Made by a program: the position numbers and the translations under genes. Positions 28,954 through 39,399 of a stretch of DNA of 64,000 nt are shown piece after piece. The stretch comes from Thermoplasmatota archaeon (GTDB lineage: Archaea; Thermoplasmatota; JAKEGO01): contig JANQNK010000020.1 of NCBI GenBank assembly GCA_028279595.1, forward strand, positions 320,001 through 384,000, in the 5' to 3' direction. Every line of letters begins with the position of its first letter. The stretch's first letter is position 1. The notes below the pieces were generated by a model that saw only the letters and a list, made by a program, of their open reading frames with translations, searched no databases and was not told where the DNA came from.

Positions 28954-28977
28954 ACCAATGATTGATTAATTAGAATA

Positions 28978-29050
28978 TGGGCCAGGGCGGATTCGAACCG
29001 CCGACCACTGCCTTGTAAGGGCAGCGTCATAACCACTAGACCACTGGCCC
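28978..29050 (-). tRNA. tRNA-Val (anticodon TAC), CCA not encoded
   Basis: GGGCCAG acceptor stem, D arm TAGTGGTTATGAC, anticodon arm CTGCC-CTTACAA-GGCAG, T arm GGCGGTTCGAATCCGCC. Confidence 0.97.
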
Positions 29051-29058
29051 ATTGCTGC

Positions 29059-30444
29059 TCAATGATTACCGTAATGCGTCTCTATGAACGCTTCCTTGAT
29101 GCGCTTCAGGTCCTCCTTCGGGAGGGTGCTCATCAGCTTCCATCCCAGGTTGAGCGTGTCATCTATCGACCTGTCCTCGTGTTCTGCCTGCGTCACGAGC
29201 TCGTTCTCGAAGAGGTCGGTGAACTGCAGATAGAGCTTGTCCCTGTCCGTTAAAGCCTCTTCACCGACAACAGCGATCAGTTCCCTGAAGTCCTTGCCCT
29301 CGGCATAGGCGGAGTACATCTGGTTGGATACGTCGTCGTGGTCCTCGCGGGTCCTCTCCGGTCCGATGCCGTGCTTCATCAGTCTGGACAGGCACGGAAG
29401 CACGTCGACGGGAGGATAGATTCCTCTCCTGTGAAGGTCCCTCGACAGAACGATTTGTCCTTCAGTGATGTAACCTGTCAGATCGGGAATCGGGTGTGTG
29501 ATGTCGTCGTCGGGCATCGTCAGGATCGGGATCTGCGTTATGGAGCCCTCCTTCCCGAATATTCGACCTGCGCGCTCGTAGATCGATGCGAGGTCGGTGT
29601 ACATGTACCCTGGATATCCCCGTCGTCCGGGAACCTCCTCGCGCGCTGCGGCGATCTCGCGGAGAGCCTCGGCGTAGTTCGTCATGTCCGTCAACACGAC
29701 GAGCACGTGCATGTCGAGATCGAAGGCTAGGTACTCCGCCGCTGTCAGGGCCATCCTCGGAAGGATGATCCTCTCGATGGCGGGGTCGTCGGCGAGGTTG
29801 ATGAAGAGAACGGACCTCTCGATGGCGCCGGTGTCCTCGAACTCGTGTACGAAGAAGTTCGCCTCCTCGGCCGTGATGCCCATGGCGCAGAAGACCACAG
29901 CGAACTCCTCGCCCTGACCCTTCACCGCGGCCTGCCTGGCTATCTGCGCGGCGAGGTTGTTGTGAGGCAATCCAGCACCGGAGAAGATAGGGAGTTTTTG
30001 TCCTCGTACGAGCGTGTTCATGCCGTCGATCGTGGATATTCCAGTCTGGATGAACTCCCGGGGGTACTCACGGGCCGTCGGATTGATCGGAGCGCCGTTG
30101 ATGTCCTTCCTCTCGTCCGGCACGATCTCCATCCCGTCGTCCAGTGGCTGTCCCGTCCCGCCGAAGACCCGTCCGAGGATCTCCTTCGAGACCCCGAACT
30201 TGATGGTCTCTCCCGTGAAGCGGACCGCGGTGTCCTTGACGTCCACGCCCTTCGTTCCCTCGAAGACCTGGATGACGGCCCTGCTCTCGTGGACCTCAAG
30301 GACCTGTCCGTGGCGTGTGTCGCCGGTCCCGGTCTTGATCTTGACGAACTCGCCGAAGAAGACGTCGTCGACGCCCTCGACGACGATCAATGCTCCGGAC
30401 GCCTCGATGACGCTCCTGTAGTCGATGTTCTTGCTCGTGATCAT
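29059..30444 (-). CDS. atpB: A/V-type ATP synthase subunit B
   Basis: [47 protein letters not shown]. Confidence 0.98.
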
Positions 30445-32187: not shown

Positions 32188-32514
32188 TCACCTTGTCACA
32201 TCGATGCCCACCGCCCGGCGGATGACCTTGGCCATCCTGTCCTCCTCCTCGCCGCCCTCGTCGGGCAGCTCCAGGAGGAGCGGTAGCATCCTCTTTTGAT
32301 CGTGAAATCTGTCTATGTCCTTCCTTATCGCACCGGCGGCCGACTCGGAGATCACTATCATCCCGACCTCGGCGTTGCCGATGAGCTCCTTGAACCTCGT
32401 CCGTGCCAGATCGCCGTCGACGTTCGCTCCGTCCTGGACCTCGGTCACGTCTGCCACTCCGCCCAGCCTGAACGCCGTCGCCATGGTCCTGCTCCCTATC
32501 ACGGCTATCCTCAT
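32188..32514 (-). CDS. atpF: A/V-type ATP synthase subunit F
   Basis: True start [20 protein letters not shown] at 32514 (ATGA overlap with atpC); ends IRRAVGID. Confidence 0.93.
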
Positions 32515-33542
32515 GCGGCCTCCTCCGTGATGGTAGCGCGTTCGACGGCCGTCCATTCCATTCCCGCTGCCGCACCCATGAGCACCGCCCTGACATTGGC
32601 GGTCTCGAACTCCCGGAAGAGCAGGAACCTGGTCAGCGGACCGATGGACATGAACCGTCGGGTGTAGACCCTCTCGGCCATGTCGAAGGTGGTCCGATGC
32701 AATGCCCGCTCGATCTCCACGGGGTCCTTCAGCTCGGATATCCCGTCGAGGTCGGTTCCAGCAAGCGAGCCGACGCCCTTCGATGGGTCCGACGCGATCT
32801 CGGTCAGCATCCACGGAGCCACCGTGTCCCCCTCGGGGATATCTAGTTCAGCTAGCTTGTCTCCAGTACCATGGAGATGCATCCTTATCGCGAGGAGGAC
32901 CAGTTCGGAATCGATCCTTGCAGTAAGGATATCGCGCAGCGGGCGTCCGGATATGCCACGCAGCCTTCCCGACGCTCGGGCCATGGCCCTGAGGTACGCG
33001 GCGTCGAGGTCAGCGTCCCTGGGTTCGTCGACGACCTCGCCGATCTCCGCCAGATACATCGACATCAGTTCGCCGGCGGTCTCGCTCCTGGACATCTTGC
33101 CTGCAAGCGTGCTGTCGATCCTGCCAACCGGGTCGATGGTCACCTCGTTGCCGTCCTCGAGGGTCGCACATGCGTCCCTGACCTCGTCGATCTCGTGGGA
33201 CATCATCATGACCTGGTAGAACGGCCGTACGCGCTTGGGAACGACCTCGAGGGCCTCTCCGAGCAGTTCGCGGTTCGCCTGCTTCATCCGGGAGTCCGCT
33301 TCGTCGATCCCGGCGGCGTCCTCTATCGGGAAGTACCTGGTGGCGAGCCTCTTTGCAGCCTCCCTACGGTCGCCTGTCGCAAGCGCGTCGGCGAGCCTCG
33401 TGGAGGACATGTTCGGGTTCCCTATGACATTGAACCTGGTGTTCAGATAGATCAGCTTGATCGAGAAGTACCTGACGAGCAGCACTATCATGACGGCGGA
33501 TGGTATGCCGATGACGGCCGCGATCGTCAGGATATCAGTCAT
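32511..33542 (-). CDS. atpC: A/V-type ATP synthase subunit C, with N-terminal hydrophobic helix
   Basis: Position between E and F, 343 aa, YLNTR and C-terminal REFETANVRAV motifs; divergent sequence. Confidence 0.82.
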   Translation of the reverse strand: MTDILTIAAVIGIPSAVMIVLLVRYFSIKLIYLNTRFNVIGNPNMSSTRLADALATGDRREAAKRLATRYFPIEDAAGIDEADSRMKQANRELLGEALEVVPKRVRPFYQVMMMSHEIDEVRDACATLEDGNEVTIDPVGRIDSTLAGKMSRSETAGELMSMYLAEIGEVVDEPRDADLDAAYLRAMARASGRLRGISGRPLRDILTARIDSELVLLAIRMHLHGTGDKLAELDIPEGDTVAPWMLTEIASDPSKGVGSLAGTDLDGISELKDPVEIERALHRTTFDMAERVYTRRFMSIGPLTRFLLFREFETANVRAVLMGAAAGMEWTAVERATITEEAA

Positions 33543-34098
33543 CGCCGCCCTCCGAGACCTGGGCCTGGATGATCTCGCGGATGCGCGGTCTCATCTCTTC
33601 GACGATCGTGTCGAAACGCAGGTCGAGGACCTTTCCGTCGCCGGTGCTGAGGAGGATCCCACCGGCCCCTTCCACCGTCCCCGTGACATGCTTTCCGAAG
33701 GATTCGAGGAGCTCGAAGTCCGCCGAACGGCAGACCGAGACCTCGTAATCGCCCAAGAGTTCGTCGCCCACGGCGAGACATCTCTCGATGTAGGCGCGAT
33801 ACTTCTCTTCGTGGAGGTCAGATAACCTCTCGAGGGACCTCTCAACCGTCAGCGAGAGGACCTCGTCGAATGCCCTGCTGACCGTCCTCGACGCCTCGGC
33901 CCGGGCCTGGACGACGACGCCGCGGGCCCTCCGCTCGGCCTCGACGACGCTGTCCTCGAAGGCCTCGGCCTCGGTACGCGCCCTCTCGAGTATCTCTTCC
34001 CTCACGGAGTCGGCCGCTGTCCTCGCCTCGTTGAGGATACCATCGGCCTCCTCCCTTGCCTGCGCCTCCAGGTGCCGCTTCAGCTCATCGAGCCCCAT
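33535..34098 (-). CDS. atpE: A/V-type ATP synthase subunit E
   Basis: MGLDEL start, helical N-half, GGILL..DLRFD motif; operon position. Confidence 0.88.
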   Translation of the reverse strand: MGLDELKRHLEAQAREEADGILNEARTAADSVREEILERARTEAEAFEDSVVEAERRARGVVVQARAEASRTVSRAFDEVLSLTVERSLERLSDLHEEKYRAYIERCLAVGDELLGDYEVSVCRSADFELLESFGKHVTGTVEGAGGILLSTGDGKVLDLRFDTIVEEMRPRIREIIQAQVSEGGDD

Positions 34099-34109
34099 CT
34101 ACGGCACCC

Positions 34110-34916
34110 TCAGAACAGGCCTAGACCTATGATCGCTAGCAATCCGAGCACGAAGCCGAACATCGCGACGGCCTCTGGCATCGCGGAGATGATCAGCCCG
34201 CCGGAGAAGGCCTTCTCCCTCTTGCCGATGGCGCTGAGGGAGGCGCCCGCGGATATGCCCTGCGGGATGGCGGACACGCCGGTGATCCCGACGATCAGCG
34301 CGATGCCGAACAGCGCTACCCACGAACCCGAGTTCATGGCAACGTCCGGAGGCACGCCGGCCCCGCCGATGAGCCCGACGCCCATCAGTATGAAGAAGGC
34401 GATCGCGAACGCGTAGATGACCTGCGTGAACGGCAGTGCGGAGAGCATGAGGATCCGGCCGAGGCCGACCTCCTTCTCTGCTGACAGCGCCATCGCGGAG
34501 GTTCCTGCGATGGCGAGCCCCATCGCGGACGCGATGCCGGCGATCGCCATCATCAATCCGATCGCGATGAGCGACATGTTCTGCAGTTCCGTCGGTCCTG
34601 CCACCTGCACCTCGACGACGCTCGCGTACTCGCCGGTCGCGTTTGATATCACGAGCGACACCAGGTAGGTCCCGCCCGAGGTGTACCTGTGCGTCACGGT
34701 CTCCCCAGACGCGGTGTCACCATCCCCGAAATCCCACATGTAGGTGGCGTTCAAACCTCCGTCTGGAGCCATGAACACGACGTTCTTCTCGACATCCACT
34801 TCGATGCTGTCGACGTCCTCGGTCACTGTATCGCCGACCATTATGTCGACGGCCGCCGCAAGGGGCAGCATCATGACGAGCAACAGCGCCAGCACAAGGC
34901 ATCTCAAACCCTTCAT
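34110..34916 (-). CDS. atpK: ATP synthase subunit K/c (4-TM, V-type-like) fused to an N-terminal signal peptide and PKD domain
   Basis: aa1-22 signal peptide; PKD signature YMWDFGDG..VTHRYTSGGTYLVSL; proteolipid motifs LPFTQVIY, SAIPQG, AMPEA. Confidence 0.92.
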   Translation of the reverse strand: MKGLRCLVLALLLVMMLPLAAAVDIMVGDTVTEDVDSIEVDVEKNVVFMAPDGGLNATYMWDFGDGDTASGETVTHRYTSGGTYLVSLVISNATGEYASVVEVQVAGPTELQNMSLIAIGLMMAIAGIASAMGLAIAGTSAMALSAEKEVGLGRILMLSALPFTQVIYAFAIAFFILMGVGLIGGAGVPPDVAMNSGSWVALFGIALIVGITGVSAIPQGISAGASLSAIGKREKAFSGGLIISAMPEAVAMFGFVLGLLAIIGLGLF

Positions 34917-36805
34917 TTGTTTCCCTCCTCGAATTCAACCTTGGTGTAAAGTCTCTGAGCGTGAAACGGTTCGAACTGGCGTCCCTCGCCCTCGTAGAAC
35001 CGCTTGTAGAACTCCACGAACTGGAGCCTCAGTGAATGGACACCCGCTCCCAGCGCCTGCAGGGCCAGGTTCCCCAGGTGTCCGCCTATCAAAAGGATCG
35101 TGATGACTATCGCCGAGAGACCGATGGGAAGCATTCCCCCCATGGTCAGGGCGAAGGAGTTCAGCGCCATGGCGAGGAGCATGGTCGCCAGGCCGAGGGC
35201 CATTATCCTGATGAACGACAGCGCGTCTCCGAGCATTCCTGTCACCTCGAACAGGAAGAAGAATGCGACGTCCACCAGTATGAGACATATCATCGCCAGT
35301 GTCATGAACAGGGCCGCCGTCTCGACAGCGGGCGGATACGACGCCTCGAACAGGAAGATGGTGATGAGCAGTATCCCCGCGGGGAGCAGCACTATCCACG
35401 AGACCCGCTTCAGCACGAAGTCCTTCCTCTTCCCGCTCCTTAGGTCGTTGATCCCGCCGAGGATGACGCTCACGTAGAGCATGATCGCCCCGATGAGTAT
35501 GGACAGGACGATGAGTCCGGTGACGTTCTCGATGAGGTCTATCGGAAGGACGATCCCGCCTATCTCCAGGTGGTAGAGCTGGTCCCGTCCGAAGACGGCG
35601 CTGTGCAGGTCTCCGAAGAAGGACCCAGTCAGGAAACCGACGATGGCCGTGGATGCCCCGAGCTCTATCCCTAGGATCGATGCGCCCTTCATCGCCGGAC
35701 TGGACCTTCCGATGACCCTGTATCCGTAGATGGAGAGCCCGAGGATTATCAGGCCATAGCCCAGGTCGCCCAGCATTATCCCGAATATCAGTATGAACGT
35801 CATCGCCGTGAGGACCGTCGGGTCCACCTCGTTCCTCGACGGTGTGCCGTAGAGGCTCACGATACCCTCGAACGGTCGCGCCCATCCGGGGTTCCGTATG
35901 TAGGTGGGGGCGTCCTCCCTCTCGCTGAGGTCGACGTGAGCCAGACCCTTGCTCGCCCGCCTGACGGACCGCTCGAGGCGGTCTGCGTCCCGGGCAGCGG
36001 CCCATCCGGTTATCTCGTAAGTGTATCTCCCCTCTGACAGGGTGCCCACGGCGGCGACCTGTTTGGCGGCCATGGCGAGCTGTTCCCTGAGAGCGAGGAA
36101 GCGGCCGTGGTCCGGCTGTAGAGCCGAAAGCTCCTCCTTCAGCCTTCCGATCTCCTCCTTGGCGGACTCGATCTCCTTGGCGAGCTCCATCGCACGGTCG
36201 GAAGGAAGTGCCGGAGCGGTAGGAAACTCGAGCCGGTCGAATCCGGCCAGCGCCTTCCTGTCCCTGACAGCTATCAGCGAGACCGCGCCGTCGTCCGAGG
36301 TCCATACCGCCTCCTCAGGAACGGTCTCCCCTGGTCTTATGAATGCTAGTGAGTAGCCTCTCCTCTCACCGACCTCGGACAGCCGGACCGGCGCTCCGAG
36401 CACCGGCTTGATGGCATCGAGCTCCTCGTCAAGCTCGCGTCGCTTCGACCTCAGCTCCTTCAGGCGCGAGTGGGCCGCAATGGCCCAGTCGAGGTCGTCG
36501 GCGACCCGGGCCCCCTGCTCGAGGACCCTGTCGGGGGTTGTGAACGGCGATCCCTTGGGTACGATGGGCTCGGGAAGCAGGATGGACCTCATGGCCTCCT
36601 TCCTGTCCGCCGGCCTGGGTCTCGATGCGTTGACGAGCGTCGCGATCCGCTTCCTGGTCTTTACAAGCTGGGAGTGGAGTTCCGGCGCCTCTCCCTCGGC
36701 AACCTCGATCTCCATGATGCCCTTCTCGTGCAGGTGCGACAGCACTGGCTGTACCTTCGAACGTGGAACGGCTATCCTGACGTAGAGCATCCTCTCCGGT
36801 ATCAT
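34913..36805 (-). CDS. atpI: A/V-type ATP synthase subunit I (a)
   Basis: EVDPT, FGIMLGDLGYG, essential Arg in LSFIRIMAL, HSLRLQFVEF. Confidence 0.95.
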   Translation of the reverse strand: MIPERMLYVRIAVPRSKVQPVLSHLHEKGIMEIEVAEGEAPELHSQLVKTRKRIATLVNASRPRPADRKEAMRSILLPEPIVPKGSPFTTPDRVLEQGARVADDLDWAIAAHSRLKELRSKRRELDEELDAIKPVLGAPVRLSEVGERRGYSLAFIRPGETVPEEAVWTSDDGAVSLIAVRDRKALAGFDRLEFPTAPALPSDRAMELAKEIESAKEEIGRLKEELSALQPDHGRFLALREQLAMAAKQVAAVGTLSEGRYTYEITGWAAARDADRLERSVRRASKGLAHVDLSEREDAPTYIRNPGWARPFEGIVSLYGTPSRNEVDPTVLTAMTFILIFGIMLGDLGYGLIILGLSIYGYRVIGRSSPAMKGASILGIELGASTAIVGFLTGSFFGDLHSAVFGRDQLYHLEIGGIVLPIDLIENVTGLIVLSILIGAIMLYVSVILGGINDLRSGKRKDFVLKRVSWIVLLPAGILLITIFLFEASYPPAVETAALFMTLAMICLILVDVAFFFLFEVTGMLGDALSFIRIMALGLATMLLAMALNSFALTMGGMLPIGLSAIVITILLIGGHLGNLALQALGAGVHSLRLQFVEFYKRFYEGEGRQFEPFHAQRLYTKVEFEEGNK

Positions 36806-37119
36806 ATCGATCCCAGCACCTCGTCGACCACGATGTCGGACATGGTGTCAACGGCCCTGGAACCCGCGCGGACCACGGAGGATGCGGTCGACTCCCCCTT
36901 CTCGCGAACGGACCTGGCATCCTCGGAGCCGTTGTGCTCGGCCTCTGCCGACCTCTTCCTGGACGATTCGCGTGCCTGCGAGACGATCCCGTCCGCCTCC
37001 TTCTCCGCCACGGAGCGGGCCTCCTCGATCAGGCTTCCGGCCCTCGATCGGGCCTCCTCGATCGTGCCAAGGGCGTCCTTCTCGATCATATCGACGAGCG
37101 ATCCCTGTTCCTTGACCAT
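36802..37119 (-). CDS. atpH: A/V-type ATP synthase subunit H (peripheral stalk)
   Basis: Short charged helical ORF heading the operon. TTTATTAA box about 25 nt before ATG 37119, so probably leaderless. Confidence 0.75.
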   Translation of the reverse strand: MVKEQGSLVDMIEKDALGTIEEARSRAGSLIEEARSVAEKEADGIVSQARESSRKRSAEAEHNGSEDARSVREKGESTASSVVRAGSRAVDTMSDIVVDEVLGSI

Positions 37120-37410
37120 CGAGTCCGGTAACACTATTCATTAATAAAGGATTAACCTATGGAATGGGTCCACTGAAGGTGTCCGTCAGGCACCGTCTTG
37201 ATGTACCCCGAACCCACTGATCCTCACTTTCCGGGCAAGAGTTACGGACTCGATGTTCGAATGTCGATTTTCAGGCCTTTTTCGGAGGAAATCGGGCATC
37301 TGCCGGGCGAAAGGTTAAAAAACACGCTTACCATCCCTTTGATAAGGATAGCGCATCGACCAGGCGGGACTATCACTGTCCACATCAAAAATACCGGAGA
37401 GAGGGGGAAC

Positions 37411-39399
37411 ATGGCATCCAAGTCCGAGGCTAAGGAGCTTCTGAAAAAGGCCGTTGAGCACGCGAAAGCTGAGGAGTACGACGAGGCGATGGAGTTCGTG
37501 GACGAGTCGCTCGGGGTAATAGAGACCCCGGAGGGATACACGAACAAGGGCCACATCTACCGGAAACTCAAGGATTGGAAGAATGCGGCCGAGAACTATT
37601 CCAAGGCGATCTCGCTCGACGCAGACCACGAGAAGGCGATCTCTGGCCTCGAGGCGATGAAGAAGAAGCTTCCCGAGGAGGACTGGCCCTCCGAAGGAGG
37701 CGAGGAGCCAGCGCCGGTGAAGAAGAAGGAGAAGCCGGCCAAGAAGAAGAAGGCCCCCAAACCCGAGCCAGAACCTGAACCCGAGCCAGCTCCCGCTCCC
37801 GTCAAGAAGAAGAAGAAAAAGGCGCCGAAACCGGTCGAGAAGGAGCCGGAACCGGAGCCCGAACCCGAGGAGGAACCTGAGGAGCCAGCGCCCGAGCCAA
37901 AGAAGGCAAAGGTGAAGAAGGCACCGAAGGAGCCGGAACCCGAACCCGAACCAGTACCCGCTCCGGTGAAGAAGAAAAAGAAGAAGAAGGCCCCGAAGCC
38001 CGCACCGGAGCCCGAGAAGCCTAAGAAGAAGATGGCGAAGGGCAAGCCGGTCAAGAAGGGCAAGGTCAGGAGGCCCAAGGCGGATGTGGCCGCGGTCGAG
38101 GTGGTCGAGGTCGTCGAGGAGCCGCCCGAACCCAAGGCCGAGGAGGCCGAGGACGCCCTTCAGGACATCAAGGACGTTGTAAAGGACGATCATCTGAAGG
38201 CCATCATGAAACTGTCCCCGGACATCCTGATGGACTTCGATCCGGACATTCACAGGAAGCTCGAGATATTCCACCACATCGAGGCCATGCTCGACAACTT
38301 CGAGGAGGCCGAGGACGCTGTGAAGAAGGAGCTCGCCGCCCGGGAGGAGAACATTCTCCGGAAGGAGCGGGAGCAGGAACTCCTGGACAAGGAGCTCGAG
38401 CTCAAGAAGAAGCAGGTAACCCAGCGCGTAGAGGAGTCCGACAGGCGCTTCATGGAGGCTGAGAAGCACCTGAAGGGCATCGAGGACAAGGGCAAGTCGG
38501 TGAAGGACATGGAGTCCGCCATCACCGATAAGTCGAAGGCGCTGGAGGACAAGCTCGAGGAACTCAAGGTGACCACTGCGGCAGTGCGGAAGCGCCAGGC
38601 AGCCCTGGAGAAGAGGGAGGCCGAGATGAAGAAGATGGAGAAGAAGCTTCGCAAGGAGTTCGAATCCGCCTCCGCAGACGTAAAGGACAAGGAGAAGGAG
38701 CTCGACACACTTCTTTCCGCAAGGCAGATCGCCGAGCAGGAGATAGACAAGGAGAAGTCGGAGATCGAGGCCAAGTTCAAGAAGCAGATCGCGAAGCTCC
38801 AGGCCGAGCTCAAGAAGGAGCGCGAGGTCGCCAAGAAGCAGAGCGGCGTCGTCAAGAAGGCCAGGGGCGCCCTCTCGAAATCTAAGGCTGACCGCGAGGA
38901 GCTCATGGCCGCCCTCGGCAAGAGGGAGGCCGAATCGCTGCAGCTCAAGGAGAAGCTGGAGACGCTCCAGGCCTACCTCGTCGAGAACGAGAAGCTCCTG
39001 AAAGCCCGCGTCGGACGCGCGGCGGCCGACAGGGAGAAGGCCCCGGAGAGGGCGAAGGAGCTCGAGGAGGAGGAGACCGAGATCACCGAGCGCGTCAAGG
39101 AGCTCGAGACGGCAGTCGAGGACACCATCGAGGCGCCCGAGGAGGACGACCTCGATGAGGTCGATCTCGGGGACCTCGACGAGATGGACATCGACGTCGA
39201 CGACCTAGATCTCGAGGCCGAGGCCGACGATCTCGCGGCGCAGTACGACGCCGAGGAGGCCGAGAAGGCCAAGGATGAGAAGAAGGAGGAACCCGCGGAG
39301 GACGACCTGGGAGACGTCGACCTCGGGGACCTCGACCTGGACGACATGGACCTCGACATCGAGGACATGGACGACGATCTGCTGGCAGAGCTCGAGTGA
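37411..39399 (+). CDS. TPR / low-complexity / long coiled-coil protein with acidic tail
   Basis: ATG 37411 after GAGGGGG; TPR pattern GYTNKGHIY..AAENYSKAISLD; KKKK and PEPEPE blocks; heptad-rich region; DLGDLD repeats. Confidence 0.8.
   Translation: MASKSEAKELLKKAVEHAKAEEYDEAMEFVDESLGVIETPEGYTNKGHIYRKLKDWKNAAENYSKAISLDADHEKAISGLEAMKKKLPEEDWPSEGGEEPAPVKKKEKPAKKKKAPKPEPEPEPEPAPAPVKKKKKKAPKPVEKEPEPEPEPEEEPEEPAPEPKKAKVKKAPKEPEPEPEPVPAPVKKKKKKKAPKPAPEPEKPKKKMAKGKPVKKGKVRRPKADVAAVEVVEVVEEPPEPKAEEAEDALQDIKDVVKDDHLKAIMKLSPDILMDFDPDIHRKLEIFHHIEAMLDNFEEAEDAVKKELAAREENILRKEREQELLDKELELKKKQVTQRVEESDRRFMEAEKHLKGIEDKGKSVKDMESAITDKSKALEDKLEELKVTTAAVRKRQAALEKREAEMKKMEKKLRKEFESASADVKDKEKELDTLLSARQIAEQEIDKEKSEIEAKFKKQIAKLQAELKKEREVAKKQSGVVKKARGALSKSKADREELMAALGKREAESLQLKEKLETLQAYLVENEKLLKARVGRAAADREKAPERAKELEEEETEITERVKELETAVEDTIEAPEEDDLDEVDLGDLDEMDIDVDDLDLEAEADDLAAQYDAEEAEKAKDEKKEEPAEDDLGDVDLGDLDLDDMDLDIEDMDDDLLAELE

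Follow-up and report, generated by a model that had tools for sequence, protein, structure and literature searches.

A ring subunit of an archaeal A1Ao ATP synthase with a fused and probably exported PKD domain

The only K (c) ring subunit found for the A1Ao ATP synthase of a marine Thermoplasmatota archaeon is a fusion protein that consists of a predicted signal peptide, a PKD (Ig-like) domain and a four-helix membrane part. Prokaryotic ring subunits are taught as bare hairpins. Our literature search, which lay outside most subscription journals, found no published description of an Ig- or PKD-bearing ring subunit, and databases name such Ig-K proteins either K or 'PKD domain-containing'. We propose, with a confidence that is about evenly balanced, that the PKD domain forms a passive glycosylated collar that would act as a cap or shield on an otherwise ordinary Na+-coupled A1Ao synthase, by analogy with the Ac45 protein of eukaryotic V-ATPases.

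The gene was analyzed within a window, the whole stretch of 64,000 nucleotides taken from contig JANQNK010000020.1. The atpK open reading frame (ORF; 34110-34916, minus strand) comprises 268 codons with 0 internal stops and sits between the genes for subunits I (34913-36805) and E (33535-34098), and its start overlaps the subunit I stop via an ATGA. The operon order is H-I-K-E-C-F-A-B, followed by tRNA-Val, and subunit D is encoded on another contig, C11. The operon features are as follows.

36802-37134, minus strand: subunit H (G-like peripheral stalk), by Pfam/NCBIfam profile matches
34913-36805, minus strand: subunit I (a), 630 aa, essential Arg533 kept, without an extra outer domain
34923-34930, minus strand: ribosome-binding site GAGGAGGG ahead of atpK Met1, within the end of atpI
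34110-34916, minus strand: atpK/ahaK, signal peptide, PKD domain and four-helix K (c) subunit, 268 aa, by the ORF list and Pfam
33535-34098, minus strand: subunit E, by Pfam/NCBIfam profile matches
32511-33542, minus strand: subunit C, by Pfam/NCBIfam profile matches
32188-32514, minus strand: subunit F, the C-terminal portion of a longer listed ORF, 93% identical to the PF01990 gene of relative L001
30441-32183, minus strand: subunit A, with intact P-loop and catalytic GERGNE motif
29059-30444, minus strand: subunit B
28977-29051: tRNA-Val, 3' of subunit B

A previous sequence-only reading of this DNA had described a sole K gene of 268 aa between I and E that is free of stops between its parts, and both the ORF list and a genome search agree, the atpK ORF alone matching PF00137 in a genome that is 86% complete. 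The genome encodes the full enzyme set: subunit a with its Arg, A, B, C, D, E, F and H. The subunit D gene (G000:C11:109147-109719) adjoins IF2-like GTPase and nucleoside-diphosphate-kinase-like genes; Pfam called no D gene after B in a second genome, G002 (L233). Upstream of the operon, a divergently transcribed 733-aa protein (37198-39399, plus strand) has a TPR, repeats rich in Lys, Pro and Glu, and a long coiled coil as well as an acidic tail. Subunit I of the nearest relative (L001:1921-3785) is split near codon 300 by an apparent frameshift or short deletion, which may be an assembly error.

How well is the outer portion of the K subunit defined? Its parts, together with those of the membrane portion, are located as follows.

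34851-34916, minus strand: predicted Sec signal peptide, aa 1-22, putative cleavage after A20-x-A22, by sequence features, with a like N-terminus in all orthologues
34596-34850, minus strand: PKD (Ig-like beta-sandwich) domain, aa 23-107, by Pfam, AF2 and Foldseek
34743-34751, minus strand: sequon N56-A-T, B-C loop, predicted membrane-distal, with a sequon at or adjoining the site in 8 of 8 close orthologues
34635-34643, minus strand: sequon N92-A-T, F-G loop, predicted membrane-distal, partly conserved
34110-34595, minus strand: two c-hairpins, helices 110-147, 152-180, 196-230 and 236-264, by alignment, AF2 model and Foldseek
34173-34175, minus strand: E248, ion-binding carboxylate, aligned with NtpK E139 in the alignment to 2bl2

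The N-terminus combines basic K2/R5, a hydrophobic core, P18 and A20-x-A22, features that bear out the signal peptide previously placed at residues 1-22. The PKD domain claimed ahead of the c subunit was checked against Pfam, and two profiles exceed their gathering cut-offs: PKD (PF00801) at residues 44-105 (E 5.6e-14, 52.3 bits against 23.5) and PKD_4 (PF18911; E 6.3e-14, 52.2 bits against 27). The domain contains the WDFGDG core, and Foldseek pairs its predicted fold with the PKD domains of 1l0q and 4tn9. In the AF2 model of the atpK product (mean pLDDT 90, pTM 0.77), the PKD strands exceed a pLDDT of 90 in most blocks, the last strand ends at residue 106 and helix 1 begins at residue 110, and confidence stays high through this junction.

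The PKD domain is probably exported and N-glycosylated, as judged from sequence. Among the sequons listed in the sequence-only reading, N56 and N92 are real and, from Ig topology, would lie at the domain end away from the membrane; N113 is not conserved. Across 20 Ig ectodomains, whose sequences are kin, 57 sequons are observed against 18.5 expected from composition, with at least one in each. Sequon density reaches 2.96 per 100 aa in the ectodomains versus 0.22 in soluble cytoplasmic subunits, a comparison of kin sequences made without a formal test. This sequon excess supports the earlier suggestion of export, as does the presence in the genome of AglB and of a Sec11-type signal peptidase, whose motifs occur in an ORF on contig C9 that scores below the TIGR02228 cut-off. 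We also consider it likely that the domain is retained on the mature ring.

The AglB/STT3 oligosaccharyltransferase is encoded by a 2441-aa ORF (G000:C4:29975-37297) with WWDYG at about residue 612. The protein bears 38 sequons, and its C-terminal region is very long and finishes in a membrane anchor. The absence of a signal peptidase was considered when a first search returned none at E 0.001 and was dropped when the divergent Sec11 type was found. This signal peptidase I (G000:C9:32351-32641; L226:1012-1905) carries a long insert, and similar weak matches occur in genomes G001 and G002. A role of the PKD domain as an acidic Na+ funnel was also ruled out because its charge per residue (-0.156) is the same as that of the other PKDs of the genome (-0.152).

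Could the fusion be a product of assembly? Mis-assembly, or a recent dead-end fusion with translation from Met114, has a practically negligible probability. The sole sequencing run with the exact DNA may be the source sample, which leaves some room for an artefact: one Logan contig from a coral metagenome run spans the whole stretch, junction included, with 0 differences at a depth of 18.8. The other two runs, X2 and X3, gave only short unrelated pieces, and the sequencing-run search listed no RNA runs containing the stretch. The independent support for the junction, where the sequence-only reading had proposed a read check, comes instead from the orthologues. Orthologues from independent assemblies share 84, 69 and 64% identity, and because independent orthologues at 41-84% identity hold the junction in frame, the fusion is not an assembly artefact. 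In eight orthologues, V105-x-G107 and the core PKD residues are invariant and the junction is free of indels. An internal start at Met114, raised earlier as an alternative, is unlikely and was rejected since Met114 is replaced by Trp in three of the eight orthologues and no ribosome site precedes it. A GTDB search for the same architecture, named as a check in the sequence-only reading, recovered the fusion in each of the three GTDB genomes that belong to this Thermoplasmatota class; one of them is Thermoplasmata archaeon PMV_4.75. The fusion also occurs in five metagenome proteins (P0002-4, P0041 and P0043), and P0041 and P0043 have the same build and the same operon position.

The membrane part resembles a known Na+-binding ring subunit. 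ATP-synt_C matches the atpK product twice (Pfam, E 3.6e-15), and Foldseek superimposes the model on Enterococcus hirae NtpK (2bl2) with a TM score by target of 0.83 and an rmsd of 2.5 A; the four-helix c subunit proposed to follow the PKD domain thus stands. NtpK is the best sequence and structure match for this part (E 8e-11). The best NCBIfam match, PRK08344 K, reaches 86.6 bits, below its cut-off of 108, and by these scores the atpK product is a divergent K outside the curated NCBIfam equivalogs. In the alignment to 2bl2, the carboxylate position is occupied by F163 in hairpin 1 and by E248 in hairpin 2. L161, T164, Q165, Q219 and E248 match the Na+ ligand set of NtpK, which we take to be L61, T64, Q65, Q110 and E139, and T164, Q165, Q219 and E248 are invariant across 21 aligned rows. 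Because the Na+ ligand residues, Arg533 of subunit I and the catalytic motifs of subunit A are all kept, the enzyme appears to be ion-coupled. It is probably an ordinary A1Ao ATP synthase coupled to Na+, in which every four helices would share a single ion site, as they do in NtpK. An ion-blind ATPase, with a c subunit lacking the carboxylate, no subunit a and an F-type head, is ruled out by E248, Arg533 and the A-type operon. ATP synthesis has been demonstrated for the Eubacterium callanderi enzyme, which has a V-type c subunit of such kind (PMC9171764).

What does the history of the PKD domain reveal about its role? Each of the eight close K-fused PKDs finds its best match in another member of this group, and the 26 other PKD domains of the genome rank lower. 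The PKD domain has therefore been inherited with K, and a recent capture from the genome's own surface proteins is ruled out. In a comparison with L001, the nearest relative, the PKD domain has a dN/dS of 0.33, the K part one of 0.024 and the remaining subunits values of 0.05-0.23; no folded part of the operon is under weaker constraint than the PKD domain. Its dS of 0.97 falls inside the operon range of 0.47-1.16, which rules out a recent PKD swap. The PKD domain is under purifying but weak selection: the fold is kept and the surface drifts. Among the class genomes, all of which retain the fusion, identity within the K part has fallen to about 50%.

The domain is one of several modules found in the same slot. 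Among the 80 closest GTDB loci, a signal peptide with a short acidic tail occurs in 74, a signal peptide with a DxDxDG module in 5 and a PKD domain in 1. The DxDxDG module spans about 60-70 residues, is TSP3-like (TSP3_bac matches) and is putatively calcium-binding. A second K clade carries an Ig/PKD domain ahead of 2, 3, 4 or 6 hairpins, which were seen in 10, 2, 36 and 3, respectively, of the 51 Ig-K proteins inspected, numbers that reflect search ranking and are no census. That search also yielded about 80 related multi-hairpin K proteins that are bare, with no N-terminal extension, many of them from Methanomicrobiales and other archaea. Ig-K is also present in a cultured member of the phylum, Aciduliprofundum boonei T469 (DSM 19572), whose 606-aa Aboo_1266 (WP_008083817.1) has an N-domain with a predicted Ig sandwich fold (pLDDT 92) that matches filamin (Z 9.2) and the PKD-containing 1l0q (Z 7.9). 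In a quick-method tree that was built from the first two hairpins of 81 rows and has an uncertain root, the Ig-bearing K proteins fall into two separate clades, and a single grouping is rejected (AU p 6e-14). Either the domain was gained more than once, or a single gain preceded losses and swaps. P0164, an unrelated K, has a TIG-like domain at its C-terminus (weak Pfam match, E 0.03), which should also face the outside. The metagenome contig scan returned mostly plain PKD proteins, and the ESM Atlas gave no usable feature match, with all rows below a TM of 0.4 by structure.

Several relatives show further peculiarities. Aboo_1266 (L018:511-2328) has six hairpins, the first without a carboxylate and the third with an unusual post-Glu motif, E-T-P-S-I-T; if three or four such subunits made up a ring, its number of ion sites would be non-standard. 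P0164 (L201:5001-5741), whose domain is TIG/IPT-like, lies within a normal I-K-E-C-F-A-B operon. In Ig plus multi-hairpin lineages (L199, L204, L206, L207 and L210), the arginine helix of subunit a is followed by an extra hydrophobic stretch of about 45 residues, which subunit a of the window lacks. Very long poly-hairpin K forms occur at L023:751-3456 (G023) and L027 (G013) and as P0023 and P0036, with sizes that include a 968-codon frame, 1042 aa and 1139 aa; each may form a ring from one chain or nearly so, as in Methanopyrus kandleri. The K frame of G013 continues into subunit E with no stop between. In the bacterial V-type K proteins P0133, P0107, P0130 and P0126, a signal peptide is accompanied by acidic linkers that reach about 45 residues, and the P0133 cluster is named Clostridia.

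The weak constraint on the PKD domain could also describe a near-neutral passenger, inserted between an existing signal peptide and K in an Ig-rich lineage and kept since it must fold, be exported and is nearly free to spin. We hold this to be unlikely. The dN/dS of 0.33 with its variable surface, the genome-typical charge, the negligible drag computed below, the exchange of modules in one slot and the wealth of giant ORFs in the genome are all in keeping with a passenger. However, the domain is kept in all three class genomes though a simple in-frame deletion would yield the signal-plus-short-tail form, and neither the occurrence of Ig-bearing K in two separate clades nor the C-terminal TIG-like domain of P0164 is expected of a passenger. 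Two of these lines of evidence also bear on the collar that we prefer. The domain is dispensable in near kin, as seen from the 74 short-tail loci and the bare multi-hairpin K proteins, and the giant ORFs and the very large C-terminal extension of AglB fit tolerated accretion; both count against a collar, and the exchangeability of the outer module and the pairing of one Ig domain with 2-6 hairpins count for it. The giant open frames lie at G000:C18:210352-251607, C1:16644-41315, C1:127829-144580 and C11:91830-108404 (13752, 8224, 5584 and 5525 codons), and the 2.3 Mb genome has 65 frames of more than 1300 codons, some of which may be shadow frames.

A second alternative limits the domain to biogenesis. 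The signal peptide and the exported folded domain would secure the N-out insertion and folding of a very hydrophobic subunit of four or more helices, and the domain would later be trimmed or stay idle in the finished ring. This account is likewise unlikely. The signal peptide is more widespread than any single ectodomain, Ig domains also precede the long 4- and 6-hairpin subunits, and the luminal domains of Ac45 and the (pro)renin receptor are removed by cleavage (PMC7414150), all as a biogenesis aid would have it. However, neither a second signal-peptidase-like site nor a variable linker lies between PKD and helix 1, where the junction length is fixed in eight orthologues, and bare 5- and 6-hairpin relatives cope without a signal or domain.

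How would a collar form and act? In the model that we prefer, the signal peptide would send K through Sec and be cut after A22, and the PKD domain would fold outside, where AglB would N-glycosylate its distal loops. The domain would remain attached to the first ring helix without a flexible linker. With about 10 subunits, a number assumed from NtpK, about 10 domains would crowd into a loose collar that encircles the lipid-filled lumen at its outer opening. As the atpK gene is the sole K gene found, every protomer would bear a predicted outer Ig domain that turns with the ring, in line with the original proposal, and the collar would be carried passively by the rotor. It would most likely serve as a structural cap or shield that aids assembly or stability and protects the ring face, and capping or stabilizing the ring is a plausible role for the domain. 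Its action would depend on fold and glycans with no specific partner, like that of the Ac45 luminal domain on the V-ATPase c-ring.

A more ordered arrangement can be envisaged. The PKDs of this class may lock into a glycosylated crown that caps the lumen and fixes the ring size, and thus the ion/ATP ratio, or that engages an outer envelope structure; we rate this as a minority prospect. Geometry bears on this point. If ring size and radius are taken from NtpK, as 10 subunits and 27-33 A, the computed neighbor spacing is 17-21 A, compared with 34-69 A for 5 or 3 subunits, and about 3 to 10 Ig domains per ring are implied. A closed crown may exist in this class. It is not the common purpose of the family because relatives have one Ig domain per 2, 3, 4 or 6 hairpins, and a defined crown as a family trait is not supported for this reason. 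A four-copy PKD complex prediction scored 0.00 and was counted neither for nor against a crown. In a purely steric variant, packed bulky ectodomains would impose a minimum spacing that fixes the subunit number and the ion/ATP ratio. The spacing of 17-21 A for 10 subunits is about as wide as a beta-sandwich is thick, and the junction looks rigid in the AF2 model and alignment. Nevertheless, such a ring-size setter is quite improbable, given that the wider spacing of the 4- and 6-hairpin forms gives no forced contact and that the exposed strand residues vary widely.

Does the collar exchange force with its surroundings? The computed drag of a free collar of 5-8 nm is 0.002-0.008 pN nm at 100 rev/s, and the torque of the motor is about 40 pN nm. 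The drag of a free collar is thus negligible, and braking would need a tether. Archaeal surface-layer proteins contain PKD domains (1l0q), which lends some appeal to a mechanical coupling in which the collar would bind the S-layer or another outer structure and brake the rotor or pass torque. This mechanism is very improbable. The operons examined encode standard subunits only and contain no partner gene for the outer domain. A stator-side partner on subunit I is ruled out, as the subunit I of this genome lacks any additional outer domain. With ion coupling intact and one ring gene found, a fixed tether would stall ATP synthesis. Moreover, the distal loops are variable and sequon-bearing. The braking and torque transfer put forward in the sequence-only reading are not borne out by the operons, the variable domain surface and the intact ion-coupling residues.

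A passive collar would have implications beyond this genome. Within one archaeal phylum, several lineages make every ring subunit of their apparently sole ATP synthase with a folded domain that is probably glycosylated. A domain that stayed on the ring would be for prokaryotes what the luminal cap is for eukaryotic V-ATPases. The relatives form a natural series, from no domain through a short tail and a calcium-type repeat to about 3-10 Ig domains per ring, for questions of ring assembly, size and lumen sealing. The two-hairpin form in the window would give the densest collar, and the outer domain would be a built-in marker by which subunits could be counted and rotation followed. With Aciduliprofundum boonei T469 in culture, the question can be tested. 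If an ordered crown were true, a prokaryotic ATP synthase would have a functional rotating module outside the cell, and the repeated recruitment of unrelated modules (PKD/Ig, calcium-type repeat and C-terminal TIG-like) would indicate an unrecognized job for the outer face of wide K rings.

The individual elements of the fusion have known counterparts. Subunit L of Thermus thermophilus and AtpP of Sulfolobus reportedly have a cleavable N-terminal signal on the ring subunit, with no folded domain after cleavage, and this signal-only form is the commonest among the Thermoplasmatota relatives. The PKD domains of surface proteins, such as 1L0Q and the clostridial collagenases, share the WDFGDG motif and the beta-sandwich fold, but they are spacers or binding modules of static or secreted proteins, whereas the domain described here is on a rotor. 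NtpK of Enterococcus hirae (PDB 2BL2) has the same four helices, two hairpins, single Glu in hairpin 2 and conserved Na+ ligands, and its ring is a K10 assembly with a lipid-filled center (PMC3604715). In contrast to the atpK product, NtpK has 156 aa and contains neither a signal peptide nor an outer domain. The enzymes of PMC9171764 share the operon make-up, the two hairpins with one site and the known variety in hairpin number; the available portion of that report describes variation in hairpin number and ion sites and no fused exported folded domain. The closest functional parallel is found in mammalian V-ATPase, where the glycosylated beta-rich exoplasmic domain of Ac45 (ATP6AP1) and the (pro)renin receptor turns with the c-ring as a rigid body (PMC7414150). 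However, Ac45 is a separate single-copy, single-pass protein that is anchored inside the ring, whereas the PKD domain is built into each K subunit, and we draw the comparison as an analogy and claim no homology.
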